A DNA stretch of 59,866 bases, the filler included, from Bipalium vagum (taxonomy: Eukaryota), in NCBI GenBank assembly GCA_037834085.1. It is 3 parts of 3 records of this genome, joined end to end, with 100 filler letters (N's around TTAATTAATTAA, not from the genome) between each part and the next. Parts side by side here need not be neighbours in the genome. Positions count along the whole stretch, not along the records: positions 27,984 to 43,598 come from JBBMKC010156041.1; 2 more parts are not named here. One strand, 5' to 3'. The notes below the pieces were generated by a model. The model saw only the letters and a program-made list of their open reading frames with translations. It had not been told where the DNA came from and ran no database searches. The position numbers were made by a program, and so were the translations under genes. Shown here piece by piece: positions 661 to 47,897 of this stretch (position 1 is the stretch's first letter; each line of letters starts with the position of its first letter).

Positions 661-684
661 AGTAGAAATGATTTTTGTGATTCA

Positions 685-960
685 AACGTTGACTTGAAAG
701 TTTCAAACATAGACATAACATTGTGTAAAGAGCGGTGTGCGATGAAGCTGCTCATGCAAATTATATGAATGTTTAAGAATACATGTCCCGCATTACCACA
801 CATTTGTAAAGGTTATGAGCCGAAAAATATTTTAATGCTGACGAAACAGCTTTATATGTCCGTGCTCGTCCAAATAAAACACTTATAGAAAAATAAGCAG
901 AGATAACAGATTTTATTTTTGGCAACAAGTTCTGAAGGTGAAACATTGAAATGTAGTGAG
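685..960 (+). mobile_element. Tigger/pogo (CENP-B-like) transposase remnant
   Basis: Broken + frames read LESFKHRHNI...LPHICKGYEPKNI.NADETALY..ARPNKTL, matching the pogo/Tigger GY....IFNADETGL motif. Stops and frameshifts are present. Confidence 0.75.
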
Positions 961-1453
961 TGTGTATTGAAATTCGTCTACAAATGTGTAGAAAAGCCGA
1001 GAGGAAGTGTGGATCCATTTGACAATACTTCATTTATACATAATATTTCACCTTGATTTGTTAAATAAAAACAAATATAGTATTTGTTTAAGTTTGATAT
1101 TATTTACAATATATAAATTAAACGCATGTTTATGAGAATTATTGAATAATTAAAAATATAGATTCTAATTTTTCCTTGTATTTACAAAATAAGAAATGTA
1201 ATATTAAAAATAAAATGTAACATTTCTTTAATAAGAATCAAAATCCTATATAATTTATAATTAATATCATTTTCAAATACTACTTAAATGAAAGAAATTT
1301 TAAAATTTTATTCTTCATAATCTCATAAAATTAAAGAAAACAGCATTTCTTTTAATAATATATTCTGAATATTATTTTTGTAACATTAATTTTAAAAAAT
1401 ATTTAGTTTAAATTTAACTATTTAACTAAAGTATTTAGAAATTGTGTTAAATA

Positions 1454-3298: not shown

Positions 3299-4119
3299 GT
3301 TCACTTCCCATTTTTAGATTTCATTGATATATTAGAAGTGCTATCAATTTTTTTTAATTATTACAAAAAATATTAAAAATCGATTTTTTCTAAATTTTTG
3401 TAAGGCTTTTCCAAAACTTTATTTCTAAGATTACCTGGCAACAGCAGCGCCAATTAGGCCTTGATATTTGAGTTGATTGGTTTCAGAAACCAGTGTAACT
3501 GTTAATAAAACTTACTCGGTCTCATATCGATTTTTCATACTTTCTGGCCAGTTATCGGGTAATATTGTCCGACTGCTTGTAGATATTGGTCTGGAAAAAT
3601 TTTCGCTATAAAAACTTATCGTAAATCATTAAATATAAAACTAAATCGAGTTTTTAGTTATTTATGGAATGTTTTTCGTGGTTGGAGGCCGATGATCAAT
3701 ATTTTAGACTTTTCGGAAATGTTCCAAACACTTCACTGAACAGAATGAATCAAAGTTATTAAATAATTTTCAGCTGAGCTTTGCAATTTAGAGTTTTCGT
3801 TCGCAAAAATTTGTCCAATTTTTTAAAGTGTTGCGTGGTTCTTTTTATAATGTATTTCCGTTAATTGATCTTTGATAAATTTTGGTGTTAGGATTCATTT
3901 TATTAATATAGATATTTTTCAAACCTTTGTTTTAATTTCAGATCCATTTTGTCTGTTTTGGTTTCCCTCCTTTTGATTGGCGTTTATTTCAATAATTTTT
4001 TGTTAATATAGGTTTAACTCTTTTGTTCTTTTAAAATAAATCCAGCAGAGTTTTTTATGTTACTGGTAAATTATGGTAACGTGACAATCTTTTTTTTTTG
4101 AGATGGAAATGTTACAAGA

Positions 4120-4600
4120 AGGATTCGATTTCTATATTTCAAGTCATGGAAATCGCACGAGTCATTTCATTTAATACATATTATTTGGTTGGAATTGATT
4201 AATTCGTAGTAAATTATATCCATATCCCACCAAACACTTAATAAAACTTTTCTTGGATGAAAACTTGATTTTTGCTGGGCTATTCCAGTTTCCTCGGGAC
4301 TGAACCATTGCCTTTGCCTTTTAACATTGTAAAATATCCAATTTTCGTCCCCGGTAACAAACCGATAGGCGAGAAAGAAAACTTTTACACACAATCCGTT
4401 AATTTCGGTTATTTTCACACAAATCGTGTGGTACCCATTAGCTGAGTCTGGAAACTTTGTTAATTTCTTTTTAGGTGCCGATAAATAGTGGATTTAGTTG
4501 AATTAGGCTCCTTAGCTATTTTTTCAACGGTTGTAACTGGATTTTGTTCAACTGTCGCCTTCAATTGATCGTCATCTAACTCCATAGGTCGTCATCCTGA
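4120..4600 (-). mobile_element. mariner transposase remnant
   Basis: FVTGDENWIFY and HPRKVLLSVWWD motifs, plus an upstream decayed WVPHDL. Confidence 0.85.
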
Positions 4601-5699
4601 AAGTTAGTGTTCCTCGACCGATGGCCTAATTTGAGACAGAGATTCACAGAGTTATTATATTTTCACAAAGTAAATATATTTTATTTAATATTGTTACTTT
4701 ATCTACTCATGCAACCGAAACCCAGCACTTAAGATATTATGTGTCATTTGTATCTTATTTAGTAATTAATGCCTTTTGTTATTACTTAGAAAACATAGAA
4801 GACTATTGAAAAGCCATCGTGAATAATAAGGATTGTGTTATTAACCATAGCAGATTTAGAAAAATGAGAGTGAAAGAAATGTTATCAGTGACGAGTGATT
4901 TTGAAATCACGAATTTCAATAGGAAAATGGTACATAAAATAATTACATTTTTAATTAGTTGAAGAATTAGGATAAATTTTGAACGAGAGGATTTTATCCA
5001 GGTTGGTCTTCAATTATGAAAACCCTTTTGAATAGTAAGGTCCACTTGCACGATAATTTCAGTCATGCTGTCCGTAAGAAGGCATGTACTGATTTTGAAT
5101 TTGTCTGTAATTCTCTATTTTAGAGCGTCCATCAGCTCTAAAGAGAAGTTATACGACTTCAGCCGCATATGCAACATGGACTCACTATCGTAACACCATT
5201 AGGGATCCTGTCACCTTTCTTAATCCATTATGGAAGACCGAAATAATGATCTTTTCAAGGAAGATTTATGAAAAAAATAATATTTAATTTAAGAAATTTA
5301 AAATAATTATTATGGATTTTGGAAAAAATTTGGTTCAAAGGAAATACCGAAATTTGTATATCTACTTATTATTATCATATTAGTATTGGCAAAGTACACA
5401 GTTTATATATTTTCATTTTTTATATTCCATGATTTAGAATAATAAATGGAAATTTTAATTTTAATAAGCTTTTGGGTTAAACAAAATATATGCACAAACT
5501 GGTAAGGGAGAGATCATAAGAGAGAGAGAGAGAAAGATAGAATGTTGAGAGAACAACAACCATAAAAGCAATGATTTGTATTTATATCACAATACCTCAC
5601 ACAAATCATGATGATAATAATAACATTAAATCGTCAAACTCAGTAAAGGGATCACAAAAAATAATAATGTCATAAATGTCTTGAATAATAATCAATAAA

Positions 5700-6930
5700 T
5701 GATAATAATGTTATGTATAAATGTATGATAAGCAATAAAATTAATCGATTAAAACAAAATATCATTTAAAATCAAATGTTAATTAAAAAAATAAAGATCT
5801 GTTAATTAAACAAAATTTACACTATAATAATTACGAAATAATAACAAATGTTAAAGAAAAATATGAATAATAAACAAAAAAATCTTAGGTTATCTTCGTT
5901 TAAAATTCCCGAACTATCAGCTGAGTCTGTAGAGTTGCTCAAAAATAGCCCTCTGATGGGAAACTTAATTATAATCTCAGACGATTTTACAACATCACTG
6001 AAAATACTTGATAGATAAAATTCGTTAATCTTTTTCAATAGAACTTGGAGAACCTTCATCAATAGAATTTGATAGTCGTCAATAAAATTCAATAATTTTC
6101 GTCAATGAAAGTTCCTTGAGCGGTTCTCAGGGCGAAATTCTATTGAAACCCCTTTGCTTTTATACTTTTCAGATGTTGATCTTGACTTAGAGAATATTCT
6201 TGATATAATATCAAAAACATAAAAACTCCTTTAGAATTCCTAAAATTTCTACTTTCTCATTTATCTTTAATTTATGATTACTATTAAAATTACCTTTTTA
6301 AAATGAAATTTCTTTTTGAGAGCTTTCTTTGAAATTTTAGTAATTTTAAAATAAGAATATTTTATACTTTTACTTATTTTTTATTGGTTTTTTATACTTA
6401 ATTAACTTTAATTATTATTTTTGTTATTATTCCATGGACTCTTTTCGCGATCCTACTTAGTATTATTTACTGGGTTGTCTTGGTAAACCAAACAACATTG
6501 ACAATTGATGATGATAATAATAATAATAAGGTTAATAATGCACAATAATAATGATAGTTATTGATAATAACTGATAATATATATTAGTACAATTGTAATT
6601 CAAAATTCCTAAAACTTTTAATTAGTTTTTCTTTTAAAGCTATTAAAGAATAAGTAATTTTCAGCTAAGGTGAATAAGGTTCTGGCTGAGCTGAGTAGTT
6701 GAAGCTCTCAATGATCTATTAGTGGAAAAGAAAAGCTGATATAAAGAAAATGACTGGAGCCAACTTAAAAGCTAATTGATTATTCAGCTCGAGAAAATAC
6801 GTTCAGACTGAGCTGAATAATAAAGGGTTTCCGGCTTATCCATTACCTAATGATAAAAGAGAAGTCATTAGCTGGTGAAGAGACTCTGATTCCTATGTAA
6901 TGGAGTAGCAGAGTCTATATAGTCACACAA
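5700..6930. repeat. LTR-like / dispersed repeat sequence upstream of NF-YB
   Basis: Strand-biased composition like the LTR-type segments at 18.2-19.2 and 39.1-39.8 kb. It has a degenerate ~125 bp direct repeat (TCAGCT...CTGAGCTGA at ~6660 and ~6785) and ends in ...CACA. Boundaries are uncertain. Confidence 0.3.
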
Positions 6931-25881: not shown

Positions 25882-27882
25882 CTAATATTAAAATAGAATC
25901 ATGGAAAATAGTATTAGTTGAACATTTATTAAAAGAACCCAATTCACTGCCTATTATCAAGAAATTTTTCTACATGGAATCAAGAAAAGTTTTTCACAAT
26001 GTATTAGGTTGTAAATAAAGCTTATGGACAGACCACAAAACTATTGATATTACATTTTGATACAAAGATTTCGAATTTCTGAATATTAAATGTCTGTAAA
26101 TCTAATTTTTATCGATTCAAGAATAAATTATCTTTCCATTTTAGAACGATTCATGTACAAATATATAATGGTCAAAGTATTACCATGAAGAAAAAAAACC
26201 TTACATTAGTTAAGCGAGGTGCTCTACAGATTATTTTACAGGTCTTTCAACCATAATCCAAAATGTCTTAATTTCTCCCCTTCATTTATACACATTTTTT
26301 CAAATTGTTCAAAAAACCAATTTTCACAGTTACTGAAAATATTTATTATCCATATTTTTTTCCTATCTGAAATTTTCAATAAATTCTGTGTTTTAATTAA
26401 ATATTAATTTGTCACACGTCTGCAAAACCGAAAAATTCCCATTTCAAACAGATTATGTTGTACGAACTATGAAAATGTGATTTTATTAATAATAATAAAA
26501 TTACCGCTAATTAAAATTATTAAACTTAGATTTCATTTCATTGATCGACTTCAAAAATAATTATTTTATGACCAGTCATTTTATTACTGTTTAACTTTTC
26601 CCCAATATTTATAATATCAATTAATAATAATTATCTGATCCATGTGATTGAATCACTAACTAAACCTAAGTGATTTTAAAAAATGTTAATTATTTTAAAA
26701 AATCATAAAAATATCCAAAGAAGTAAAAACACTTCACAATGTATAATGGTGTAAAAATCTTTAAAATGCCGCCTTCCAAATAATATATAAAATTCTGTTG
26801 AACAATTAAATGGACAATGATGAAAACGTATCAAATTTTTGTATGCATGATTTAGTATTCAGATAATTAACCTTTGATAATGTCATATGTGAACTTATCA
26901 TACAATGGTCATTGTTTGTTATCAATTAATATAAAAATATCGATTTTCAATTGACATTGATGAAAATATTATCGCTATAGCGATAAAAAAATCAATTTTA
27001 GAATTTACTTGTTACTAAAATTTTTATTGAAATTGTGTTCCAGAATATTTTACAATTTTCTTGAAATAGGTAAAAATAGCTTTTCGTTTTTACTATATCC
27101 TTTAGCCTATTTTTTAAAACGATTCAATTACTTTATTATTTAATTATATCCAGATAATTGATAATTTTAAAATAACTATAAAATTTCATATAGTTAGCAA
27201 TCTTTAAGTACTGGTAGATCAATAATTTACTGATCAATTAATTATAAATTAAATATTTTAAATATCATTTTTCAAAGAAATTAAGATTTATTGACTTATT
27301 TTTAATTTATGATTACAAAAGAAATGGTGATATAAACTTTAAAAGATTTTCACCGTTTTTCAAAGGAAATATATTTAAAACATCAAAATGAGATAAAAAT
27401 TTGTTATATGATAAAAAAAAATTAATGGATTTGTGCTTAAAAATATGAAATGAAAATAAAATCTGATTTTAAATTTCTGTGAAATCAGCATTTAAAACGA
27501 AAATTGAATTTATTTATAATAAACATAGTTTAAGTTTATTTCTGTGAAATGATTTCAAATGATTAATTATATTTAATCGTATTAAAAAAATGTGAAGTCA
27601 TTTAATAAAAATTATTAAAATACCACAGATTGATTGAAAAAAATGAATGTTCTGTTAATTGATTTCTTAAACTTCAATTCACAATATATCAATTATTATG
27701 AGAATTTGAAACAGGTTTTTTTATTCTATTATTTTTGTAGCTAAGATACTCAATTTTGATAGATTTTTTTATTATTTGGATCAAACAAAACTGTCCACTG
27801 GAAAATCGTAAAATTGATATTATATCTTGAACAAAAGAATTCTCGAGATATATCAACACATAATTATAACCTTGAACTTTAA

Positions 27883-27983
27883 TNNNNNNNNNNNNNNNNN
27901 NNNNNNNNNNNNNNNNNNNNNNNNNNNTTAATTAATTAANNNNNNNNNNNNNNNNNNNNNNNNNNNNNNNNNNNNNNNNNNNN
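27883..27983. other. Assembly gap with artificial TTAATTAATTAA linker
   Basis: N-run, then TTAATTAATTAA (stops in all six frames), then N-run. The same structure occurs at 43599-43698. Confidence 0.95.
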
Positions 27984-29932: not shown

Positions 29933-32900
29933 CCAATTTCCTTAGACAATTTGACAGGAATCTTTGTGGTCATGGAAGCTAGTTGTTCTAATAATGCTGG
30001 GCTAATCGTTAAGTCATCACAACCACATAGATCAATAATTTGAGAAACATTGCGAAAAGAAGCCCCCATAATCTATGATAATGAAAAAAAGATTTTGAGA
30101 AGGGTTATTCACACATTATACTTCGGTTTTAAATCCATGTTTTTTGTAAAAGTTATAGATTTTTTTCACAGAAATCACTCCAGGGTCTTCATCTTCACGA
30201 AACACCTTTTGCCCAAACTTAGAAATATACCAATCATAGATTCTACCCACAAAAGGCGATATCAATGTGACGCCCGCTTCAGCGCATGCTACGGCCTTGA
30301 AGAATTATTAAGTAATTAATTTCAAAAACTCAAAATTACTTGAGCAAAAGCAAATAAAAGTGTTAAATTACAATGTATATTGTGTTTTTTTTCTAACTCT
30401 GATGCTGCTTGTATTCCTTCCCATGTCGAGCTAAGTTTGATCAAAATTCGATCTTTAGATACTCCACTTTCCTCGTATAATTTTATCAGGTCAAGAGCTT
30501 TCAAAACTTGAGCATTTTTATCGAAAGAAAGTCTGTGATAGAAATAAATTTTAAATTATCAAAATATTAATTATTAATAGTTTTAAAATGAACATTATCA
30601 ATTGGTACATCTAAGACAAAGCGCAAAGGGAACGTCAATCAAGATTTATATATTTATTAATAACATTTTCAAGTTAAATATTATCAATCAAACCTGGCAT
30701 CGACTTCAGTTGAAACTCGGCCTGGAATAATTTTCAAAATTTCAATACCAAAATTAACAACCAATTTATTCATAGCTTCATTAAGTTGTTCTTCAATATT
30801 ACTAGAAAACAGATAAAATATTTCAAATGGTAAAAAACATTTTAAAATTAATTTAGAAAATCTTTATTTTTTATCCATGGCAAATAATAATTACTCAATT
30901 CAACTCATTTTTAACATTTAAACATAATTATGAATTATATTCATTCTACTGGACCAATAATTTTATTTCTGAATATATTTTTGTCCTCAATGCTGCCATC
31001 ATAATTACGAAACCTTTGACATCATTTTTTCGCATGTTCGTTATACTGCATCATATCTAACAGTCTTACATATATTTCGCCTAGCTTCACGAGCAGAATG
31101 ATCCAAACGTTCGTAAATCTGCAATTTTGTGATATTCATTCTAAAATTGATAAAAATATGTACAAAAAATCAAAGGTTTTTCATTCACACACAGTATAAA
31201 TGGGCTTTTCATAGATGTCTAAATCGATAAGGGAATAAAAGAAATAGATTTTTTAATGGATTTAATAATTATTACGCGAAAATAAGGCCGCGAATTTAGT
31301 TTACAACATAATACTTTACATATTACTCTAAAGTTTTCTATTCCCCTAAGAACTTCTCGATGCGTACCTGATTCCAATTAGATTCATTTGCTTATCATTT
31401 GTTTTGAGCCTTTTCTTCTTATCAATAAGAACCCCTCCAAGAATTGAAAGAGTCACTAACAAAGACGCAAGTTTAGTCCTACCAGACAATAAAAGAATGT
31501 TTATATTAGACACTGATGCCAGTTTTGAAGCGATTGGAGCAGACGATAATGGAAAAGAGAGAGTGATCGCGTACAGATCACATGCAATTAAGAGTCATGA
31601 AAAAGAATACTGCATCACAAGAAAGGAACTATTAGCAATCTATTTTTTTAAACCATTTTAAGCATTACTTGTATGGCAAAAGATTTCAATTGAGAACAGA
31701 TCACAAAGCAATAGAATTCATGTTTTAGACGAAAAAGCCAACAGCACCACAATTTCAGTTTTTCTCGATAACACGCAGACATGTTATCGAGAAAAACCTG
31801 CGATAAATTCTCTCAGTGTATATTGATTTATGAAAAGCCAAAGACAGAAAATGAATGTTGTTGCTTGTAATATAATTATTCCGACATGACAAACATTAAT
31901 CTACAAAACATGTCTCAAGAAGATGCTACTTTGATAAAATGCCATCACGATTTATTTTCGAAGTAGTTCTTGATAATGTCGCTATTAATATGGACTATAC
32001 ACTTTACAATGGAAGAAAATATTTAAATATCAAGAATAATAAAGGATGTCACGATCTCTTTTCATTTAAGTCTGTATTTTTAATGAATAAAGTATTTTCA
32101 ATACCATTTTGATAAAAATTTAGAAAACTTAGTCCATTCCAATAAAGAATTATTTTAAATTACAGGTTTATGCAGAAATATATAGAAAAATATTCAGAAA
32201 TATTTAGAAAAATATTCAGAAATATATAGGAAAAAAATTCGATTTTTTCTATTTAAATTTGATCACATTTTAGTCAACCAAAAATATCAGTTGCACGGTT
32301 GCTATTAAAATGTCAGGTTTTGTCATCTGTTTTTTATTAAATCAAATTTACAGGCATCTTATGCTTCGAAATCAAAGACGGATCTTTCAATAGACTTTAT
32401 TATTGACAAGCTATGCAATCATTTCGATCGAAATCCTGGGTATGTATTGGTGATGGACAATTGAAGGTTCCATCAACGCAAAGATGTTATTTCTGCCACC
32501 ATACTCGCCTCAGCTACAATTCGCACATACTGTATCATTCTTTATAAGAACCATTATAAATCGGGACGATTGATTATTCAAGTAATGCATAACGATATAG
32601 ATTTAAGTGATTATTTTCGCACATGAGGCGGTTTATAGAAAAACCTTAGCGAGACAAGAATTTATTTAATGTACATTTCCACTATATATTTCTGAATAAT
32701 TTTCTATATATTATGAATAATTTTCTATATATTTCTGCATAACCCTGTAACATTATGATTTAGGAAATTTTTATTTTCTCTGTTGTTTTATTACTTTCAG
32801 AAATATCATTTCAAAGGAGTTGGAAAGACGATTAATCTTATTTAATTGTTTTATACTCATTGTTATCTATTGTTATATGTCTAATAATCATTTAAAGTAA

Positions 32901-34108
32901 CAGGGTTTTAAGAAACATTAAAATAGACATAAGTGTCGGATCTTGTTTGGTTATGTGATAGATAAACTTATGATTAATTCAGAATACATAAAGGTTTTAA
33001 AAAACCGATTCAATATTTTCTATACAAGGTCTTATACACTTTAGACCCTGAAATATTTACATAGTAATTGTAAGTATTGTATAAATACATCTATAAATTT
33101 ATGATAAGAACAAAATCAACAATAATAAAATTTTAAATATATTCAGAAATAAAGTCACAAATGTCAAGATCTTTTTGGATCAATATTACGAATTGCAAAA
33201 AATAATTGATAAAATTTATTTAGTATTTCTCATTAAGTAGAAATAAAATTTTCAATCATATCTTAATAAATTGATCAAAAATTCAGAAATCATGAAAGAA
33301 AAGGAATTTAAAATTAAATTTTATTAAAAAATATTAAATTAAATGTGATTTGTGCTCTATTCAAACATAAAATTTCTACTGGTTTTTTATATTTCGCCTC
33401 CTAAAAGTTTGTTTGATAATTACAAAATCATATTTCATATAGATATGATTCACCATTAACTCCATTTTATGATAGCCTTTTTGAAGTACATTTAATCAGT
33501 TAAATAAGTCGTTTAAATTAAATATTTTAACATTCTTCAATGATTAATGATTTCAAAAATACAAGGCTACATGATTTCATTTCTTATCAAATGACTGAAA
33601 ATACTAAATGTTTTAAAAACAAAAATTTTAAAAGGATTATACAATGGTTAATGAATCTTGTTATGGCATACATTTATAAAAATAATCTAAATTATTAATA
33701 ATTTATATTGAATAATGAAAATCGTGCGACTGCAATCAAAATATTGCAGCATGATTATTGTAACCAATATATTAAAAACCAGTAAACGATTAACACATCT
33801 TTTAATAAGACACTAAACTAAAATTTATCAGTTTATTCAAATTTCAAAATATTGAATTAAAAAAAGCATACCTCGACTTGGATTTAGCATAACTAATTGC
33901 ATCGTTTATTAAATATTCGTATTCAGAAAGTTTTGAAGCCGCTAAAATTAATGATGGATTTGTAGTGGCATCCACTGGTTGATATTTTTTAATAGCTTCA
34001 AAATAAAGGTTCAATAAAGATTAAATCATAACTAAAATTACAGTTAAAGTCGCCTGTATCAGCAACAATTTTTGTGTGTTGCTTTAATTGATCCAAAGTT
34101 GAAACCAT
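29933..34108 (-). CDS. TALDO1: Transaldolase. Six exons seen (34042-34108, 33872-33995, ~30694-30801, ~30340-30532, ~30121-30294, ~29933-30071); final exon(s) not found
   Basis: [54 protein letters not shown] (catalytic Lys), [23 protein letters not shown] and GCDDLTISP. Confidence 0.95.
31430..31790 (+). mobile_element. Ty3/gypsy pol fragment (RNase H) in a transaldolase intron
   Basis: [49 protein letters not shown]. Confidence 0.9.
32163..32747 (+). mobile_element. Internally deleted IS630/Tc1-like DNA transposon with long subrepeated TIRs and TA target duplication
   Basis: Ends are TA|CAGGTTTATGCAGAAATATATAGAAAA and TTTTCTATATATTTCTGCATAACCCTG|TA. Internal remnants are LVMDN*RFH and FLPPYSPQL. 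Confidence 0.85.
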
Positions 34109-35197
34109 TATTTAAAAATATTAAAATTTGAAGATCAGTCGTAAACACAACAATTTATGTTCGACACATAACTATGGTTACCAGACGCTAAGCTAAAAAT
34201 GTAAACCTGAAAGAAAATTTGATAGAAAGTGGTAATATATAGTTTTTTATGAATATATGAAATCGAAATTGTTTTCATTATTAATTATTTATGTGAAATA
34301 TTATTTTTTAAAAAATTATAAAGGATAAGCTGTAAAATTTTTTAATCAAATTCTGTTAATATACGAATTTGGTTTTTAAAAGTTTATTCATATATTGTAC
34401 AATACAGAATATTTTACACTTCATATTTGACTTTATGTAACTTCGTCTTATAGTATTGAAAATAAAATATTTAAATAATTAATGAATGAGGCTGAGAAAT
34501 GTGTTACTATTATACCTTATGAAAGTAACTTTGGTTCGTCAATCAGTAACTCCTCACTTAACAATGTTTTGCTCGTAATTCTATTTTCTCTGCACAAAGT
34601 TAAACTTAACTTGAATCAAAACTCCACGTTTAAAACCTTATCTGCTCTCTAAGTAAATCAAAACTCCCACAATAATACGTTATCTGCATACAAAATTGAT
34701 TCAAAACGATCAGAATAAAACTCTATTATAAAGCTAACAGCAGTCTGACGCAACAACAAAATTGGCTTAGAGACTGCTTTTTTCCTTAATAGCCATTAAT
34801 CAAACCATATCTCCACGCCGAGATAGAGTCTGTAAAAAACTAGTTTAAACTTGCAGTCCACACGAAAATGACTGTCAGAAAATCCATTAGCCTAATACAT
34901 CAAAATCCAGACGGCGAGATTTTGATATATGGCTTTTTGGAATAAAAACTTTTTTCAATTATTATTATTATTAATTCCCACTATTAATATTATTATTATT
35001 AATTATTATTGGTATTATAATTATAGTCGGGTGTCGCTTCTTGGGTTTAATTTTGGATTGCCCCCTTCCTTCTTTCTCTTCTTATCGTTGACTAAGAGCA
35101 ATTCTTGTCCTGTCTTACTAGGTCTTACCACTATTTTTTTCCAATCCCAACCACATTATTGGCTCAGGACGGATTTCTGCTAATGAATTCTTCAATC

Positions 35198-37000
35198 TCA
35201 TCTTGGTCTTTCGGTTCCTGACGAACTGACCTCCCTTGTTTCATCCCTGCTCTCCCTTCTCGTCTCTTCTGCTATTTCTTCTTCATCGGGTAAGTCTCTG
35301 ATCAGATCTACACTCTCTGATAATATTATTACGTCTTCATCATCCTCTATTTGGTATTCCCAAGTTGGAGTTTGAGTCCTAACTTTTCTTCCCTTCATTT
35401 GATTGTTAGCTGGGCTTTAAATATTATTTTTCTTTGTAAAGTCCGTTGCCATAACCTTCATCTCTTCTTCCTTCTTCTACTTATTCTGTCGTCTTCTTTT
35501 GTGTTCTTCTCTTGGAATCATTAGTTCAAAATCATTGTCGCTGTAGTCCATATCGACATTCGGGGACTTGTATATTTCCCTATACCTCTTGAATTGGCTT
35601 GTCAGTTTCTTCGATTCCTCATCCTCGGATTCTTCACTTTCTACTTTTGTGTCATTTAACCAATCCTCCTGGATTTCTATCTCCTCCTGAATTTTCTTAA
35701 ATATTGTTTTTGGTACTACCTTACTTGTGGTTGTTTTCTCCTCAGGTCCCAACCTCATTTTCGTCACTTTACTAATCACTGTCTCAGGTGGATAATTATT
35801 CTGTTTCTGGACCTCCTTTCCTATGTCTAATAATTCTGTTGTCAGATTATCTATGCATCTGTCTGCAACCACTATGCATACATTCAGTATAAATTGTATG
35901 TCCCGCTATAGTGCAAAGCACCCTCTCTTATCTACCATCTCCAGATTCGCGTAATACTTGATCAGTATATATAATGACACTGTTCAATCTATTTTAGGAC
36001 CTGAGTACATCCGTCTTGACTAAAGGTAGTATCGCTAGGTTCAATAGCCTCTGATCCATCTGCGGTCTATTCTGATCGTCTCCAATGCCTTCTTAACGTC
36101 GTGTCCTACCACTATTTTCCCTTCCAATATGTTCGACAATCTCTTATTTGCTTCTTAATCGTCTTCCTGTCCTTCTGCCATCTCAAATGTTATTCCGTGA
36201 TCGCATCACCGATAGTCAATCACCTCGCGGGGTTATTGGGTACCTGTAGGCAAAGTTTCCACTCGTATCTGTAACGGTAGCCCCAAATGGAAACATCTTA
36301 GTAAGAATCTGTGTTGCTCCATATTTCACGTCCAATAGCACTATCTGGCTCATATATGAATTTCTGAGTCACTTCTTGTCGATATACGGTAGTCTCTTCG
36401 ACTATTTTTCCTCAGGGATTAGATCCCATTTCGAGTCTGCTTTCTTTGAGGGTTTCCACGCTTCTTCTGTTCGGCTAAAGACCTGGATTATCATAGGCCG
36501 GGTTTGCAACAAACAGCATTCAATGCCTTCTTCTTCGTTAATCTCCATCGACTTCTGCATCTCTGATAGGAATTCTCCGACTCTTACTTCTTTCCTTTTA
36601 TTCTCTAAGATGAGTATCCTACCTGTGCTCACAAATTCGATAATTTGCCCCCAATGACTGAGATAAACTAGATCGACGGCTATAATGTTCCTCTTTAAAC
36701 AGATCATTTGGCGGTCATCAAATTTTCTTCCTTTTAACTTATTATGGTTAGATGCTACTTCTGTGAACCACTTCATAATTACAGTGTATCGCTTGAACCA
36801 AGCTTTCATCATCTTGATCTCCATCATTCCTTTTAGAACTGTTTTCTTCTTTAATGTGAGGGGTTTAATCTTATCAACTAAATCAAATATTTGGTTAATT
36901 ATCGCTTCTTCTTGGAGAATAAAGAATGGATGAGGAACTGTGTCGGGCCTCGTGCCGGAATGAATTTTCTCGATTATTGAATTGGTCTGGTTATATCAAA
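35198..37000 (-). pseudogene. Accessory ORF with a REX4/ISG20-like DEDDh 3'-5' exonuclease domain (~36350-35880) and an acidic/basic tail
   Basis: Stitched frames read QIVLLDVKYG..TVTDTSGNFAYRYPITP / EVIDYR*CDHGIT..LSNILEGKIVVGHDVKKAL..VSLYILIKYY..FAL*RD. This is collinear with REX4-family IVALDCEM, V.DYRT..SGI, L.GKILVGH.L..D, SLK.L and H.S.ED. Confidence 0.65.
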
Positions 37001-37225
37001 AGTCTGAATGATCAACAATTAACTTGGGTTGCGTTAAATATAGGTCAAAAAACGACTTACACAACAGAATTTTTCACGTCACACACACGAAACAAAACAG
37101 AAGAAAAACAAAAGAGAAAATACGAAAAAGTAAAAAAACAAAAATAAATAAATAAATAAAATAAAAAATATAAAACAAACAATCACACATAAATAATTAC
37201 ATACTCAATCATACGTGATACATAA

Positions 37226-38512
37226 TTATACATAACACTCTTCCACTCTTTTGAAACTTGAAGTTTGGTTGACCAGCCCTATTTTCAGACACGGTTCCAA
37301 AATCCATCCGTCTCCGTTATTTGTTAAAGGTTGTATTTTTGTTGGCAGCTCCAAACTCAATAGCTTCTTCAGCTTTCTTTTTGTAACTGTTATTCGCTCT
37401 CTTCTCAACGCTTCCTCGTGTGGCAACACAATGCTCCTGCTGCCATGATGATCAATGCTGCTCCGCAGGCCCCTATGGCCATAACTCAATTGTTCATTTT
37501 CTTAACTGCTTCCCCTTCCAACTTCCATTTTCGCCATATAGCCGGTAACTCGTTTGTTCACTCTTTGGTTCTCCTCAACTGAACGTTTACCACGGCACAC
37601 TTATAACTATAAATGACTTCTCCCATCATTCTTTCAAAAACTACTTGGTCTGGTAACAACATGGGCGCTTCTGTGTTGCACTTCAATATCCGCTTCCTTT
37701 TCATGAATCGAATACCTTCATTTTTATCTTTGCTTACCAATACGTTGGTTGTTTTCTTTTTTTCCACATATTCCGCTATGGGTAACGTCTTCCCCACTCT
37801 TCTTGACCTGCTCATACTCTCTTTCTCTTTTTCGCCTTCCAACTGTACAAATACTATCTTCTTTAAGAAGATAATATCACAATCAGTAATTGGCACTCTA
37901 GAAACCAATAAAGATTCTCCTGAATTGCATCAAATTACAGAACGGATGCGAAAGCATCTTTCCAGTGGTTACATCAAATAATCCTTTGAACTCTCGTAAC
38001 TGCACCATATTATCTGAATAAATAACCACCCAGGCTACTTTTACACATTTTCTATATTTATCTCTGCCGGTACATCCGGCATCCGGTTCTATGCTTCCTC
38101 CTTCGGTGATGACTTGTCCAGTTCTTATATCGACTTTTGCATCAATTACCAACCTTGCTACAATCTGTAAATTCCCTGTTACAAAGGCTGATTCGCAGTT
38201 TTCAGAATTCACAATCAATGGAACTGGTATTAAAGTCGCTTCCAATAAAGTCGTTTTACTGTAGACTCCGCAAAAATACTCTAACGTTGCCTTCTTTAAG
38301 ATACATTCCTTCACGTTTGCCCTTCTAAATTCCGTCTCCTGATAAATATGATATTCTACATCTCCGCTCTACATCGCTTCTTGGAATTCTTCCAAATCTA
38401 TCAATGGATATATTTTCCATATTTTAGGGTTCGTACAATCGTATGCTACCAATGAATTCGATCTGTTCTTCATATTCAAAAACATCATGACTATTATTAA
38501 CATCATAGGCAT
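37226..38512 (-). pseudogene. Chuvirus (Jingchuvirales)-type glycoprotein, env-like; disrupted and internally deleted
   Basis: Signal peptide MPMMLIIVMMFL, then LVAYDC (~38440), IYQETEFRRANVKECILKKATLEYFCGVYS, C..AF.TG.L, GGSIEPDAGCTG, GEVIYSYKCAVVNVQLRRTKE*TNELP and a TM segment VMAIGACGAALIIMAAGALCCHTRKR (~37485-37408). Confidence 0.75.
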
Positions 38513-38559
38513 CCACGAATCATTTGTTGATCTCAGTTGGATAAATTAGTTGAATCTCT

Positions 38560-38800
38560 TCGACAAAATAGAAGACGAATGTTAGGAAGCTTTGAAAATT
38601 TCCACTTTTTGCAAGATACTGCAGGTCTGTATGTTAGTATAGTAATGGAAATACTCAATAAAAGCTTTTTGTTAATAATTTTCATAGTCGAAATATGTAA
38701 CTTTAACTTGAACTTCATCAGCTCCTCATTTCTTTAATGTCGTATTCGCTTTACTTAAACTTCTACAAAAATCCAAACTCTCTTGAATCAAAATAACCAT
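38560..38800 (-). pseudogene. Possible gag N-terminal stub
   Basis: MVILIQESLDFCRSLSK..FDYENY*QKAFIEYFHYYTNIQTCSILQKVEIFKA loosely resembles the start of a Ty3/gypsy capsid domain and is the first ORF after the leader. Confidence 0.35.
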
Positions 38801-39814
38801 AATAAAACCTTTCTTTAGTTCGCACCCCAAAATCAATTAAGACAATCACAATAAATTTCTGAAAAATCAATAAAACATTAAAAAATCAAATATCAATCAA
38901 ATGTCTGAATGTAAATGGAATAGAGGATTATTTCAAAATTTTAAATCACACTAAAGAATCGAGATTCAATTAAATCAAAACGTCGAAATGTCAATTCAAT
39001 AAAATAATAATAAGATATTTAAATTAAAGTTAAGATTAATACAAATAAAAGAAAAAAACAGTAAAAAAGATCCTCTCACTCAGAACCCTAACCAAAGTCA
39101 TCCTCTAGGTCTTGTTTGGTGGGTCCCATTGTAAAATCCTGTTGCACACATTTGACCAAAAATATTTATCCTGAAAAAAGGAAATCTTCGAATTTGTCGA
39201 GCTTCTTGAGAATAAATTCTTGGTCGCCTTCTTCTGCTTCTTCCAATAAAACGAATAATAAACTTCTCCTAGATTCCTTTTTGTCCAAAATCTTCTTTAA
39301 AATAATAACGAAAATAAATACTCTTCTTTCAATAAATAAATTATCTCGACTGCGAGATAATATTATAATAAATGATCATAAGTTTCCTTTAAAAGTGCAT
39401 CTTTCAATTTAAACTTAATTTTATTATTCCTTGATGATTCAGGGTTTGATTTCTAGTTTGTGCCTTTGACAAACCCAAAATTTTGGAGATTGGGTTCAAA
39501 GTTCTCCAGATATTTCTTCTGATTATTATCTGTTTTCTCCAATGAAATCTTCAATTCATGAAAATACGCACAAAAATTCTAAAGAACTCTTGGTTGACAT
39601 AAAAAATGGTTCAGGTCAAAATCGCCTAAATTCTTTTCAGATAGAATAAGACAACTTCTAAAATGTTGGCATAAATGCTTTAGAAGTAAGGGTAACCATT
39701 TTCAACATTTGGGAGGTAATGATGACAGTTAAACTGTGTTTTCCTTGTATTACATCAAATAATCGTCTTCACCAGTGGATTTGTGCCACAATCCTATAAT
39801 ATGACTAAAATACA

Positions 39815-40030
39815 TACAGGGTGCTTCATAATTAACATTTCATCTTTGTTCTTAAATATTTATTTTATTTGTTCTTTTTATTTAAATAAAGTCAAATTTC
39901 AAATAATTTACATTGTTCAATGAACATATATTTAATCCGCAACCATGTAATGTCAATAAAGTCATTCATTCTCTAATTCTGTTGTAAATATAAGAAAAAA
40001 AATAGTATGTTAATTATGAAAAAAGCTTTA
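39815..40030. mobile_element. Short Tc1-derived MITE
   Basis: Inverted ends TA CAGGGTGCTTCATAATTAACA and TGTTAATTATGAA. Confidence 0.45.
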
Positions 40031-40460
40031 CGTTACAATTTTTTATCCTTTTAGTTTTTCAGATTTAGACTAAATCTTTTCGACCAGAGAAATGAAAATT
40101 AGTTTAATAATTTTTTAGAATATACATGACTAAAAGGAAACTAACAAAGAGTTATCGTTCATTTTTGTGACAGATAAACCCGAACTTTATTTATTCTTAA
40201 GCCACATATAACACTTATTAAAGGAAAATATTAAAAGAACACTAAAAATTAGACCAGAACTCAATCTGTAAATGTGTTATTTTTAAATACAATATATTGC
40301 AACTTAATTTAAAAAGATTTTTTTATTTATATCTCAATCGCTTATTATACAAATTGTCCAAACATTAAAACAATTTTTGATCTAAAAATTATTAAATCAA
40401 GTTAACTATGACTAAAAAAAATTGTTACTGTAAGGATTCAATTAAAAACGGAAAAATAAT

Positions 40461-42197
40461 TTATTTGATGTCTAAAACAACTTCTGAATCTTCGGTATCT
40501 GAAACGTATTTTGGCTCACCTGTGTAATGCGTGGGTTCTAATAACAGCGGTTCTGAGGAGACGGCTACCAAATTCCGAGGTGAAAAATGAATTTTCCAAT
40601 CATTTTGAGGATGACGATCAAACATAATAGGCAAAAATTCATCGACTGCAATTAGCTTAGATAGAGGATCCTGATCTAATAATTTTCTTGCTCCTCTATT
40701 ATTAATAATATAACTCAGTGTCCAATATGTATAATCTGGATAAACTAGATGAGATTTTTCTGATATGTATATTTCTTTATTAGACATTTTTTTCCGACCT
40801 AAATAAAGAAGTTCCCAATCAGGTTTCAAAGTCTCGATCTCATTCATTATAATGTCTAAGCTTCTTCGAAAACCAGGTCCAAATCTTATATCGTCCTCAA
40901 ATATTAAAACCTTTTCATAATTTTTTTCCACCATTTCTTTCCATATAAAGTAATGACTCAGAAAACAGCCTATTTCTCCCATTTTCAAATCTCTTTTATG
41001 ATACGGATCGTAATATCCAGTAAGCTGTTTTACATTAAGCGAGTTTAAATAAGTTTTATTAAGTTGCTTTCCATCAACGGCTTCAAAATGTTTCGCGTCA
41101 ATTCCAAGTTGATCAAAAAGATATTCCATCTTGATTCGTCGATCTGGTCGTCTCTGAAGATTGATTAAATATATTTCATCAAATCCATATTTAGATTTCT
41201 CCGGCAGGTTTTCTGATAGGTGAATCGATGGTTTTAAAAAAAACATTTCTTCACCGTCTTCTCGATCCAACATTATCTGGAGTTTGGCATGATTAAAAAC
41301 TTCGACTTCCATAGCTAACCCATTCTTTTCAGTAGGACTAATAAAATATCCATACGACTTAGAATTATCAATATATATAGAGGCATTATTATTTTTTGCT
41401 GATTTTGCAAAAAATATTATGTCATCAAAGGGATAACTATTATTATCTGGTGGTAAGAAGGTTAGATTCAATGTAGACAAAAGGTCAAGATTGACAAGAT
41501 ATACTGTATGTACCATAGGAACTTGAAAAACTCCTTTCTTTTGTCTACGTAGAATTTCAAAATAATCTTCTGATCTTTTATAATAACCTTCTTCTGTCAA
41601 ATCTCCCCAAAAGTTTGAATACGAATCGGAATTTGTACAGTTCAATAATGGTGATACAATCGGAACGCTGTTGGCCATCAAATGTTGTAAAATATCTTCA
41701 TCAGTCACCATAACGTCAACATCAATCATAAATAAATAATTGGCCCAAGCCTTTCGAGCTGATACCAAAGCTTCGTTCCTTAATTCAATAATATTCTTGT
41801 ATCTTAATTTTGACCACTCTGATGTGCTATCTTCATCCTCATATCTTTCCTGTTCATTGGAAATTTTGTAATCAACATGATGATAAAATGACTCCATTTT
41901 TGATAACCATTCACTCATGATACTCGAGCTGTTGTCTTCTGAATGATCGATTCTAATGTAAAGACCAATATTAGTTTTCGGATAATTGAGTCTTTCTAAA
42001 TTCCCGAGAAAATATGGAAGAGTGTGAGCTTTATTGCGAATTAAAAGAGCAATTTGAACTTTTGGCAATAAATGATTAGCAAAATCATTTGACACCCCAT
42101 CCTCAGATATGATATCGCCACTGATTGTGGAAAACAAATTTATAAAAACCAATAGAATAACCTTTTGATTTAAAAATAATCTTCGAAAAACTTTCAT
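40461..42197 (-). CDS. COLGALT1: Procollagen galactosyltransferase / glycosyltransferase family 25 member (578 aa, intronless)
   Basis: Signal sequence, RNKAHTLPYFL, YSNFWG..GYYKR, VPMVHT.YL, FDDII.FA, GFDEIYLINL.RRPDRR, GEIGCFLSHY.IW, FEDDIRF, YWTLSY, VDEFLPIMF and YVSDTEDS. Confidence 0.95.
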   Translation of the reverse strand: MKVFRRLFLNQKVILLVFINLFSTISGDIISEDGVSNDFANHLLPKVQIALLIRNKAHTLPYFLGNLERLNYPKTNIGLYIRIDHSEDNSSSIMSEWLSKMESFYHHVDYKISNEQERYEDEDSTSEWSKLRYKNIIELRNEALVSARKAWANYLFMIDVDVMVTDEDILQHLMANSVPIVSPLLNCTNSDSYSNFWGDLTEEGYYKRSEDYFEILRRQKKGVFQVPMVHTVYLVNLDLLSTLNLTFLPPDNNSYPFDDIIFFAKSAKNNNASIYIDNSKSYGYFISPTEKNGLAMEVEVFNHAKLQIMLDREDGEEMFFLKPSIHLSENLPEKSKYGFDEIYLINLQRRPDRRIKMEYLFDQLGIDAKHFEAVDGKQLNKTYLNSLNVKQLTGYYDPYHKRDLKMGEIGCFLSHYFIWKEMVEKNYEKVLIFEDDIRFGPGFRRSLDIIMNEIETLKPDWELLYLGRKKMSNKEIYISEKSHLVYPDYTYWTLSYIINNRGARKLLDQDPLSKLIAVDEFLPIMFDRHPQNDWKIHFSPRNLVAVSSEPLLLEPTHYTGEPKYVSDTEDSEVVLDIK

Positions 42198-42987
42198 TGT
42201 TCAAGATTCGGAATCGATTGGTATATATATGTACAATTGATATGATTTGTTTGCGATTTGATAAAAAAAAGAAACTTATAATGATGGAAAGGTAGAGTGA
42301 AATATATAAATAGTGAAAATTATCATGTTGATGACGTAAAAGATTCGATTCGATATTTTAAAAGTGGGATTAGGGAAATATAAGTATTTTGATTCTCATA
42401 TATCGCACACAAACACAAATGTTAGATTCATCTCGCACGAAAATTATGTTAAAGATTGTATGTCTGACATGCACACAGGCACAAATAAATCTGTTTACAT
42501 AATAGTAATATTAAAGTCAATTACAATTATCATTATTTTATGATTCAACTTAATTTGGTAATTAAATGACTAACCATACTTTAATACATAATACCGGGAT
42601 AAATATGAATAAATTTGACTCACGAAGGGGTTATTTAAATAAAATCCTTATGTACTGCCAAACTTCAAAATATCGATATTTATTTACAGTCTGAGCTTAA
42701 CTATGACAATTTTAATTTTTTATATTAAATTTTTTTTCTTTTAAAATATTTTCGTTATCAATTTTTGTGGTGAATTTTGTAAATTTTATTGAAATATTTT
42801 TTTTATTAACGGAAAATCAAAATCGTAATAAACTATTAGTTAAATAATAAAAATGTTTTTATGCTAATGTTATTTCTTGCATTTCGTGCATGGTATATTT
42901 AGTTCTTATTTTAAAAATTTATTAATTATATATGCATTATCTTCTTTAAAAAACTAAGTGCAAATTTCTAATTAATTTATAATTTTT

Positions 42988-43598: not shown

Positions 43599-43698
43599 NN
43601 NNNNNNNNNNNNNNNNNNNNNNNNNNNNNNNNNNNNNNNNNNTTAATTAATTAANNNNNNNNNNNNNNNNNNNNNNNNNNNNNNNNNNNNNNNNNNNN
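43599..43698. other. Assembly gap with artificial TTAATTAATTAA linker
   Basis: N-runs flanking TTAATTAATTAA. Confidence 0.95.
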
Positions 43699-46687
43699 CA
43701 TAACATTTGATTTATTCTTTGTAATTATATTTGTGTCGTATTCAGAATTGATAGTGTAAGGGTTGTGGAACATTTGAGACATTTTATTGTGATCCTAGAC
43801 TTGTGCATTATCTTTTTAAATTTCATTGTATTGTATTTTGGTGTTGTATAAATACAAGTGTTGCTTTACTGATTGTTTTGATTTGCACCACCTAAGATTT
43901 TAGAGTCAGGTTTAAATCTGATACACTAAATATTGAACAATACAACTAGAATATAAACTATTAGCATCATAATATTTTAAAAATCTTTCTTTAAAATTAG
44001 AACCAAAATATTAGAGAAACAAGAATTGTTAAAATTCGTTATAGTTTCATTCCATTCATATTTAGACGGTTCAGAAGAATAATCAAAATCTTTATTTGTT
44101 ATTTTATTGTTTAATTTAATATATCTATTTTTATGTACTGGGGAAATTTCACTTCTTACTCCTTTTTAAATTAATAATAAAAGATCATATGTATTTTCTT
44201 AAAAATATTTTTATTTTACATTTTTAAATTTTAATTCTATATTCCAACTTAAACCTGGAGCTGAATAACAATAAAAATAATCTATGTCATAGTATTTTCT
44301 CTAAAATTTTCAAAAATATCTTCTAAAATTAAAACATCTAATTTCAAATAATAAAACACATACTGTTTAAAATGATTAAAATTCTTTTATTCATTCATTT
44401 TCAGTTATAAAACCATTTATTTTATTATTAAAATCATTTATCTTAAAGTTTATATTTGATATTAGTTTATCAACTTCATTATAATTAGAACCTTTAATAT
44501 AATCATAAGGATAATATAATCATAGGTTTTAATTCAAACGATTTTAAAATTGAAAATTTATAAGATTTTAATAAAGTTTCTCCAATAGCTTTAACAGAAA
44601 TATTGGAGCACATTCTTAAAGAATCTAAAAATCTTATATTCTTAAAACTAAGACTTATATAATCTTCATCTGAATGTGGAATTATTCTTTTCGTATAACG
44701 GTCGCAGCAGATCGGATCGAAACTGGCAATTAAGCAGAACGAGTAAAGTTTTAGACCATTCTTTAAATTGTGTTGCCCAAAAAGGTAAAGTTAACGCTGA
44801 AGATTTTCGAGTAATTATGAATAATTTTGATAATTACGATGCACGGAAGGTATGCAAATCGTTATTAATAAAAGAGCGGTAACCACAGATCAACATTCAA
44901 ACAGGAGAAGGTAAAGGCCAATGGATTGTTGATGTATTCTCGGATTAATTAAAAATATTATTTTAAAAGAGTATTTTAAAAACTATTTTTTAAAAGGTTT
45001 TAAAAAAGAGAAAATAATAATAATTTCGACCATTCAGAATTTGGCAAAATATTTGAATTAAAAATTAGACCGTCGTTTAGGTAATAAAAGTACATAATTA
45101 TAAATGTTTAGAAAAAAATTGTTCAAAATTATTGAAATGCGTTTTATTAAAAAATAAATTGATGATGTTCACAAGATTAAAAAAATATGTATATATAAAA
45201 TAAATAGATAAAATAAAATAACTGCTGCTTTTGAAAAAAGATTTACTGTTTTATTCATGTATTGTACGAGTTACTAATTTAATTTTTTTTTGAAAACATA
45301 ATAATAATAACTGATTTCTGAAGCATAGAAATAAATAATTAATAATCAAAAAATTTAAAGATAAATATAATGAAAATAAATTGTAAATTATTTTAAAAAT
45401 ATTTTTCTGTTATTAAAATTAAAAAACTAATTAAAAAATTGTTTCTTTAATTGAATAAAAATTTATTTACTCTTACATACCCATTTCGCAAAAATTAAAA
45501 TTGACACATGGAAATCGAAAATGGTTAGCGTTTGACTTTAATCAATATCTTTTTAAATATGTAGATGGAGTATAAGTTTCACATTGAAAATTATCGTTAC
45601 TTATTTATCTTATAAAAGTTTATTAGGAATATTAACAAAAATATTCGAAATTTTATTTAAAAATTTAATTTTTTTTGTTATTTAATTTTTAATTTTTCTC
45701 AATAAATAAGTTGTTAAAATCTATTTTTTATAGTGCCGAGTTAATAAATTGATTTATATTATTAGTCAAATAATCAATGATTTAAAATTTGCGCATTAAA
45801 ACTTTTTATCGTGATTGATTTGAAATATTTTTCGTTCAATTTACAAATGGTTTTCCAATTTAGAAAGTTTATACGAAAAAAATTAAAATATTATTTTTAG
45901 TTGCGGTAAGTACGCTTGTGAAATACAAGTATAGCAGACTTAGTGAAATATGATAAAAGCTTGAAGTCAAAAATAAAACTAATCTGCAATTATGAGACAC
46001 TTTATTTTATTTTTGTTTAATTGATTATTATTTTACATATTAAAAACTATTAAGCAAATAAACTGGCGATAGAGTTTTGTCATTGAAGTCATGTCATAAA
46101 AGTTACTTGGGTTGTTAGTTTTGAATTTAACATGGTCATTTGGTATGTGTAAAGTCATTAAGGCCAGGTCGAGTGAATTAATTGATTTTGCATTGTTTTT
46201 TAATTGGTTTAAGTTAAAATGACATTTTGTAGGTTTTTAATTCCAGGTCATTGAATTTGCATAGAAATGTTATATTCCTCAGAGTATTAAAGGAATCCAA
46301 ATTAAGTTTTATTCTTTTCAAATTTTTGGAAACCTGTATGTCTTTTACAGAAATTCTTGAAATTCCAGGGATCTTTTCTCTAAAAGTTAAACATTTCTAA
46401 TTAGCTAGAATGATGAATTGAGATTTCATTACAATCTTTCAACTCAGAACTTATCGAAAAACATAATTCTGATTTACCAGATGAAATATTTAAAATAAAA
46501 CTTAATATTTAAAATAAAACTTTTTTATAATTTTACAAAAAAGGAGAAGAGATTACATTTTTCTTAACTTTTTTTTATTAGAAAAACTGTTAAAGTCTTA
46601 TATGAAATAAGTAGTAAAAGAACATTTTAATTAAATCAAATAAAATTTTAATTAAAAATAGAAATGAGCGTTTTAATCAATTTATGT

Positions 46688-47897
46688 ACTGGTATGATTC
46701 CGGCTTTTTAAAAATAAAAAATGACATTTTTAAAAGTTTTATTTAATAACATTTAATCAAAATATTTTCTATGCACAGATATGAAATTGAACCATCTTTT
46801 AAGAAACGAATGGATTCCAAGAAAAAATTCTGGTTCTTTTGAAGAAATCTAGCTATCAATCCATTTCTGAAGGTCTTCGTCGGAACTGAACTGCTTCTCA
46901 GAAAGTGGGGATCGCATCGAGAGGAACAAATGAAAATCTGAAGGAGCAAATAAAAATCTGAAGGAGCAATATCTGGTGAATATAGCGGGTGATGTAAGAC
47001 TTCCCAGCTTGCATCTTCTAAATAGTTATTTACAATAGAATGAACATGCGGCCTGGCGTTATCGTGTAGTAAAATTATTTTATCATGCCTGTCCATCCAT
47101 TATGAGTTTTTCCATTTTAGAACTCGCTTCAAACGAATTAATTGTGAACGATGACGTTCACCAGTCATCGTTTCTGATGGTTTCAGCAGTTCATAATAAA
47201 TCATACCTTTTTGATCTAACTAGTTACACAACATCACTTTAGACCTATGGATATTCTGTTGTCATATCGAATCTATCTCTCGCTCCTGTCACAATCCAGA
47301 ATAACTTTTTCTTTCTTGCCTCTGAAGATATATATCACAAATTGGAAGTCGGCTTTCAATATATCTTCCCTTCAATCTATGTGAGACCCATTTTTCTAAT
47401 TTTCTAATCCTTCCTATACTTCTCAAACGTTTGGAAATGAATCCTTGGTTCATATTTAAGACAATGGACAGTCGGTTTGCGTTTGACATGGTTTTTGTAA
47501 TTGTACCATTTCTTCATGTTCAAAAACTTTTTGTGGTCTACCATGCTCTTTGTCCATGATGTCGTAATCTTCATTCTTGAATCGGTAAAACCATTCTTTG
47601 CATGTTGTAGCGGAAGGAGTTTATTTGTCGTAAAGTTATACCAACAAATGGTGTGTTTCTGCACAGGTTTTATTTGCAAAAAACTAATGCAACAATACTT
47701 TCTCCAAGTGAGATTTATTTGGAACAAAATTGTTTATTTTGAATTTCTGTATTATTTAAGCAATATCTACACAAATAAAGTTGTTTTTATTGAATTATTG
47801 ATATATGATCTTACAAATAATATTTGATAGCAATTTTATTTATTCATTGAACCACAATTTTTAACTCATTTTTGTAAAAGCCGGAATCATACTAATA
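46688..47897 (-). mobile_element. Near full-length decayed mariner element
   Basis: TIRs GTATGATTCCGGCTTTT and AAAAGCCGGAATCATAC. Motifs KWVSHRL, LLHDNARPH and LHHPLYSPDIAPSDFYL. Confidence 0.9.

Follow-up and report, generated by a model that had tools for sequence, protein, structure and literature searches.

The DNA analyzed here, referred to as the window, comprises 59,866 nucleotides (filler included) of the genome of the flatworm Bipalium vagum. On its minus strand, between positions 38,518 and 37,405, a decayed glycoprotein gene (env) of the Pfam family PF24664 (Monjiviricetes_fusion) was found, which is followed on the same strand by a second decayed reading frame (ORF2). The features of this locus and its surroundings are:

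40,461-42,200, minus strand: COLGALT (GT25) collagen galactosyltransferase gene, an intronless single exon about 2 kb from env
38,640-39,480, no strand assigned: stretch skipped in related copies (three contigs join 38,639 to 39,481)
38,586-38,679, minus strand: candidate Bcl-2-like domain remnant upstream of env, a weak hint from two short blocks
37,925-38,518, minus strand: env piece 1, comprising the beta-rich N-terminal part (fusion domain) together with AYDC and an internal hydrophobic stretch that resembles a signal
37,669-37,932, minus strand: env piece 2, past a frame change at ~37,930 and up to the first large gap (profile positions 209-301, 42 bits)
37,528-37,668, minus strand: env piece 3 with GEVI..KC..NELP (profile positions 384-430; PF24664 positions 358-404, E 0.0015)
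37,405-37,485, minus strand: TM-like segment with CC and a basic tail, preceded by a gap of ~130-150 aa and a stop at ~37,487
37,060-37,225, minus strand: T-rich non-coding spacer between env and ORF2 (22% GC vs 39% on either side)
35,030-37,075, minus strand: ORF2, decayed, 39% GC like env, with ORF pieces at 36,402-36,995 and 35,477-35,905
35,861-36,268, minus strand: remnant of an ISG20/REX-like DEDDh 3'-5' exonuclease inside ORF2, ~1 kb downstream of env
35,246-35,359, minus strand: weak possible second exonuclease-like start (9.9 bits, E 0.056)
31,350-31,745, plus strand: RNase H fragment of Ty3/gypsy type, opposite in strand to env and, with its part at 31,473-31,740, the only pol piece

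In a phylogeny, the COLGALT gene came out as sister to those of seven named parasitic flatworms with an SH-aLRT of 98, which indicates a host among the free-living flatworms. GC content lay between 20 and 35% in most 1-kb bins, and this low value no more than hints at a triclad. Runs of N at ~27,880-27,930 and 43,600-43,700 bound the contig of ~15 kb that contains the env locus. Neither an LTR pair nor another long repeat was detected around the locus, and no tRNA was found at it. A profile search of the window yielded no gag of the element to which env belongs, and same-strand pol sequences (protease, reverse transcriptase) were likewise absent from the window. Families of viral L or N proteins gave no Pfam match in any of the 19 ORFs of at least 100 aa, a search that a divergent or decayed N could escape.

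Family and fold of the glycoprotein

With its stop read as X, the piece from 38,512 to 37,901 matched PF24664 in a Pfam search with E 3e-16 and 59 bits (cut-off 27). This is the outcome of the comparison with viral glycoprotein profiles that the original prediction for this DNA had proposed. A second profile, made from 10 intact relatives, has 690 positions, of which 342 are covered by the window env; its scores for env pieces 1, 2 and 3 were 151, 42 and 36 bits, respectively (36-41 bits for piece 3). Piece 1 corresponded to positions 4-192 of PF24664 and to positions 6-207 of the relatives' profile. Outside env, the latter reached at most 4.7 bits in the window, and at most 3.2 bits over 200 shuffles. 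The match is not due to chance. A better fitting cellular membrane-protein family, named in advance as the outcome that would speak against a viral type of glycoprotein, did not turn up: there was no such Pfam match, and all 35 matches of the family profile to solved structures were herpesvirus gB, if weak ones (best E 0.003).

The motifs on which the prediction was founded were recovered on the minus strand. They comprise a hydrophobic stretch from 38,512, AYDC at 38,446-38,435, QETE..VKEC..YFCGVYS, and GEVIYSYKC..RRTKE, which after a stop continues as TNELP and is followed by a hydrophobic 19-mer, CC and basic residues. The motif given as GS....G.C.G is also there but off by one place (GSIEPDAGCTG). 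As to the proposed TM helix, the 19-mer at 37,485 is indeed hydrophobic (mean Kyte-Doolittle hydropathy 2.26) and in the same frame as NELP, but it was not aligned to the relatives' TM region by the 10-relative profile, so that its homology to that region is putative.

A model of the N-terminal piece of the window env (pLDDT 81) had chu-like and xinmovirus G proteins as its best viral matches, the top four with E 3e-11 to 2e-9 and 13-18% identity. Structural alignments with E < 0.001 showed 11-21% identity to chu-like/xinmovirus-type G. In a VIA search HSV gB took rank 1 for this piece, but with Z 4.9 and rmsd 4.9 over 112 aligned residues it was tied with unrelated chains. The model of the intact natural relative P0005 (mean pLDDT 75) matched herpesvirus (HSV) gB in the PDB (best E 3e-14, TM-score ~0.3). 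In BFVD it matched chuvirus-type G, with 21% identity at the best E of 2e-41 and 16-21% in the top 12. As modeled, env has a class III fold that resembles gB and chuvirus G. Both the PF24664 match and the structural matches to chu-like G and gB bear out the family and fold that had been proposed.

Decay of env

The env gene is interrupted by three in-frame stops (~38,370, ~37,559 and ~37,487), by one frame change within the matched region (~37,930) and by two large gaps, of which the first (~82 aa at 37,669) leaves pieces 2 and 3 in a common frame and the second (~130-150 aa) follows 37,528. Deletions had been predicted near 37690 and 37530, in good agreement with these gaps. The locus had been announced as a fossil hidden by frameshifts; since there is one frame change, against three stops and two gaps, env is best described as hidden by stops and gaps more than by frameshifting.

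The first gap corresponds to residues 415-496 of P0005, including a helix of 48 residues (444-491), and it was this region of P0005 that aligned with gB in the family-profile search. In class III proteins the region of this helix forms the trimer core. Hence the window env, with its central trimer helix absent, is not a complete ectodomain in one open frame. The 10 relatives share 14 invariant cysteine columns, and a reading of the alignment revealed that 10 of these are kept in the window env, while two are changed by point mutations and two lie in missing parts. Because of the stops, the frame change and the missing central trimer helix, the copy is predicted to be non-functional as a protein.

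Relatives of env and phylogeny

When 1.84 billion representatives were scanned in full for relatives of env, 61 matches were returned. Among the 12 that are at least 700 aa long, env is followed by a retroviral protease in eight, and in four of these eight, reverse transcriptase, RNase H and integrase are present as well. Two further long matches show a zinc knuckle or a Bcl-2-like match ahead of env; the remaining ones are P0019, which has no other Pfam match, and P0060, which falls outside the env family. The order of the relatives' polyproteins is gag, Bcl-2-like, env, protease, reverse transcriptase and integrase, with Bcl-2 and ubiquitin matches that are sub-threshold by Pfam cut-offs (E 0.001-0.2). 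The four relatives with a full pol exhibit RVT_1, RT_RNaseH, Integrase_H2C2 and rve, one of them also a weak Ty3_capsid match, and Pao-specific families were absent from the relatives' Pfam matches. One relative with the order env-protease-reverse transcriptase-integrase (P0020) is filed at NCBI under a metagenome-assembled genome of Flavobacteriaceae, which is likely a case of animal contamination of a bacterial assembly. Four others (P0002, P0004, P0016 and P0062) are polyproteins of Burro-like type in which aspartyl-protease domains are repeated in tandem, with up to seven stretches in P0062.

On contig L001, which carries the best match P0001, a Bcl-2-like motif immediately precedes P0001 in a different frame, as judged by eye. 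Since P0001 sits behind this motif, the methionine at which P0001 and the window env start likely belongs to an internal signal stretch that was exposed by decay. What the original prediction took for a signal peptide corresponds in the relatives to an internal hydrophobic stretch of the polyprotein. The two short Bcl-2-like blocks upstream of the window env were picked post hoc and ranked 22 and 55 among ~119,600 positions; their order is correct, their spacing is too tight, and a profile search for a Bcl-2-like remnant upstream of env was negative.

Stand-alone glycoproteins of 650-690 aa, putatively viral and including one beetle pair, appeared from rank 35 on (E 2e-6). In the N-terminal domain the window env was 33-41% identical to the top seven rows and 15-23% identical to 12 stand-alone/insect-type rows. 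A tree was calculated from 41 rows and 203 columns, comprising the window env and 40 of the 52 relatives retained after coverage filtering, with short pieces and near-duplicates excluded. Named chuvirus G, Burro or S. mediterranea sequences are not part of it. Named chuvirus G proteins are missing because word-based homolog searches yielded none: the search with the env piece gave no match, and that with P0053 returned only P0053 itself and one relative. Env, ORF2, P0001 and P0020 had no match in scans of viral or genome contigs either, and a metagenome scan brought up only P0001's own contig.

In this tree, the phylogeny called for by the original prediction, the window env grouped with P0001, P0003 and P0014 (ultrafast bootstrap 99), P0003 and P0014 being short pieces free of context. 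The clade sits in the side of the tree that holds all env sequences linked to gag, Bcl-2 or pol, the backbone being poorly resolved, and a quick tree contained no branch with an SH-aLRT of at least 95 around the window. Forcing the window env into the 12 stand-alone/insect-type rows, a group that was finalised after the tree had been seen, cost 16 log units, and the AU test rejected this placement, if modestly (p 0.038).

Copies of the locus

Sequence depth was determined in run X1, the one run that contains this DNA and possibly the window's own sample, by summing over contigs at least 80% alike, which is a measure of like sequences and not of copy number. The env bins reached 1,182-6,287, as compared with 30-56 in the last three bins of the host-gene flank; the bin with the TM-like segment had 1,935, with 30-33 on the flank. 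Bins between 35,136 and 37,271 had 83-423, except for the exonuclease bin with 1,482. Other X1 contigs disclosed many different gaps inside env, each in a single contig, and one contig (depth 21) joins 35,283 to 37,419. Judged by the summed depth and the variant contigs, the env family is likely multicopy in the genome. The stretch at 38,640-39,480 is likely an insertion in the window copy; alternatively, it was deleted in the three related contigs.

The downstream reading frame ORF2

The N-terminal 200 aa of ORF2 had no clear match in Pfam, the PDB or the Atlas. Dynein heavy chain was considered for the N-terminal piece and rejected, as its Atlas recognition of 1726 is under 2300. Further downstream, the exonuclease remnant matched ISG20 among PDB sequences (E 2.8e-4), and DEDDh nucleases made up three of its four matches. 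It is broken by stops and frame changes, the middle block alone aligning to DEDDh nucleases, and gave no match in Pfam or NCBIfam.

A natural relative may carry a similar exonuclease domain: in the ORF P0019, which ends in env, a stretch before env resembles DEDDh nucleases at lead level (Atlas score 0.90). Among the DEDDh-type nucleases that neighbour this stretch in the Atlas is the arenavirus nucleoprotein. The exonuclease-like stretch precedes env in P0019, whereas it follows env in the window. A profile made from two P0019 stretches missed the ISG20-like piece of the window, and the long relatives, compared with positions 33,000-41,000, matched nothing beyond env at E < 0.01. ORF2 is therefore not directly tied to P0019.

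We tentatively consider that env and ORF2 stem from one undescribed family of env-carrying flatworm gypsy elements encoding ISG20-like DEDDh exonuclease modules, a reading that we hold to be possible rather than probable; the two may also be separate decayed elements lying side by side. The common strand and GC content of env and ORF2, the depth of 1,482, the P0019 stretch and the second exonuclease-like start were counted in its favor. If such a family exists, its exonuclease might destroy the element RNA or hide it from RNA sensing and small-RNA silencing by the host. The nucleoprotein exonuclease of arenaviruses is employed in a similar way against RNA sensing. Should the assignment be true, ISG20-like nucleases in these elements would hint at counter-defence in planarian retroelements. 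A limited literature search for ISG20-like exonucleases within gypsy elements surfaced only general literature.

Comparison with known elements

Platyhelminthes errantiviruses with GAG-ENV-POL order have been described by Chary and Hayashi (2026, PMC13524379). According to the accessible portion of that study, flatworm, nematode and bryozoan elements possess gB-type env only, in this order; nine of the elements are from flatworms, six of them from Schmidtea mediterranea with 1-215 copies. Their glycoproteins are reported there to resemble chuvirus envelope genes, for which an ancient association is argued. By these descriptions, the env family resembles the errantiviruses in its gB-type env, its flatworm host and its multiple copies, and, as in them, env of the nearest relatives lies ahead of pol and is flanked by hydrophobic segments. 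Measured against the same available text, the window copy is different in that it is broken, lacks pol and LTR, gave no gag match, and has an exonuclease ORF after env; the word 'exonuclease' does not occur in the main text of PMC13524379.

The order of the giant planarian gypsy elements Burro/GYPSM1 was matched in the relatives, which show zinc knuckle, ubiquitin-like, Bcl-2-like, env and protease parts, P0062 (4,844 aa) additionally having ankyrin repeats. In the part of the publication by Arkhipova and Yushenova (2019, PMC6431247) at hand, env of Burro is located in frame between BCL2 and protease, is likened to gypsy Env and to fusion proteins of baculoviruses and paramyxoviruses, and is stated to have mononegavirus glycoprotein matches; decaying Burro fragments are mentioned for Dugesia japonica. 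It is not certain that Burro and the window have the same env type, and in contrast to Burro there is at most a weak trace of a Bcl-2-like part in the window.

With chuvirus/xinmovirus G, the window env shares the Pfam family (PF24664), the fold and the cysteine pattern. The Jingchuvirales-derived EVEs treated in the accessible sections of Dezordi et al. (PMC10084718) come from arthropods, whereas the window env is a flatworm sequence with no L or N match in the 19 ORFs around it. A limited literature search for planarian endogenous chuvirus-type glycoproteins brought up nothing on the topic. The mosquito element Anakin, as portrayed in the consulted portion of PMC7642597, has the same kind of glycoprotein as env of an LTR element, but it belongs to another superfamily (BEL/Pao), of which no Pao domains were met among the relatives found, and to another host. 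An accessory DEDD 3'-5' exonuclease is also known from the rotifer LTR elements Vesta and Juno: their ORF3 encodes an RNase D-like DEDDy exonuclease, and most of them are without a true env, as far as the available text of Rodriguez et al. (PMC5408684) goes. The window differs from them by an ISG20-like DEDDh type beside a gB-type env. Troyka was also considered and, by the obtainable part of PMC12440569, has no bearing on the env locus.

Origin of env

Most probably, env is the broken class III gene of a dead, truncated, multicopy flatworm Ty3/gypsy element of the GAG-ENV-POL (Burro-like) type. We infer its membership in such an element; the window copy, for which neither same-strand pol nor an LTR pair was detected and a gag profile gave no match, is likely a derived fragment and not a full member. 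That env is followed by an exonuclease-bearing ORF and not by a protease speaks against the GAG-ENV-POL reading. In intact members, env would be produced as a part of the gag polyprotein that follows a Bcl-2-like domain, enter the ER at the internal hydrophobic stretch and then be cut free. The freed env would trimerise and coat virus-like particles, which might fuse with neighbouring cells and reach stem or germ cells, where the element could be inserted by its own reverse transcriptase and integrase.

It is unlikely that env came from the same retroelement pool by way of another carrier, be it a non-autonomous derivative with env and exonuclease, a BEL/Pao (Anakin-like) or a DNA element. Such a carrier would agree with a window devoid of pol and LTR and with the exonuclease ORF after env on the same strand. 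The contig joining 35,283 to 37,419 suggests the same order elsewhere, but with its depth of 21 it may be another allele of the locus. Mosquito BEL/Pao elements do bear chuvirus-like G, as documented in the accessible text of PMC7642597; however, the gypsy-type Pfam set of the four full-pol relatives, the weak Ty3_capsid match in one of them and the absence of Pao families argue against this superfamily.

That an RNA virus related to chuviruses or xinmoviruses left a direct endogenous copy, comprising G, a gene junction and a second viral ORF and duplicated later, is quite improbable. The PF24664 match, the chu-like and xinmovirus G proteins as best viral structural matches, and the T-rich spacer with a second ORF behind it on the same strand would fit, and flatworm viruses are thinly sampled, which also counts in favor of such a copy. 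Yet sequence identity and the tree favor a retroelement env, the 19 ORFs gave no L/N match, and the summed depth of like sequences is very high. The original prediction had left the choice between a chuvirus-like glycoprotein and a derived endogenous env; the derived env is the better choice, and a direct chuvirus fossil finds no support, the closest relatives being retroelement env domains and the 19 ORFs having given no L/N match. Domestication, as a host fusogen (raised in the original prediction for intact paralogues) or as an antiviral env gene, is highly improbable in spite of a host gene ~2 kb away and of solo glycoproteins proposed as domesticated in mosquitoes (in the excerpted text of PMC7642597), since three stops, a single frame change and both large gaps, together with the loss of four of 14 invariant cysteine columns and of the central helix, refute domestication of the window copy as a protein.

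We thus return to the Ty3/gypsy origin of env, under which its likeness to chuviruses is likely due to old shared ancestry with chuvirus/xinmovirus G. The locus adds one flatworm lineage with a gB-type gypsy env, a kind already published. When an invertebrate genome yields a match to chuvirus-like G, a retroelement env is often behind it; linkage needs to be checked before past infection by a chuvirus is concluded.

Further features of the window

Outside the env locus, the following features were noted:

155-751, minus strand: weak DNA polymerase B match (E 0.01)
1,451-3,298, plus strand: single ORF of 615 aa, either a host gene or a mobile accessory gene, that starts with a RING finger and has another Cys-rich stretch
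4,167-4,493, minus strand: Mariner/Tc1-type transposase remnant (Transposase_1, E 1.5e-11)
46,743-47,099, minus strand: Mariner/Tc1-type transposase remnant (DDE_3, E 0.015)

The DNA polymerase B match may be a remnant of a Polinton/Maverick element. Another, separate repeat of high depth occupies positions 34,502-34,950 beside an ATT microsatellite; it breaks off sharply at 34,502, where 45 loose-ended contigs were counted.
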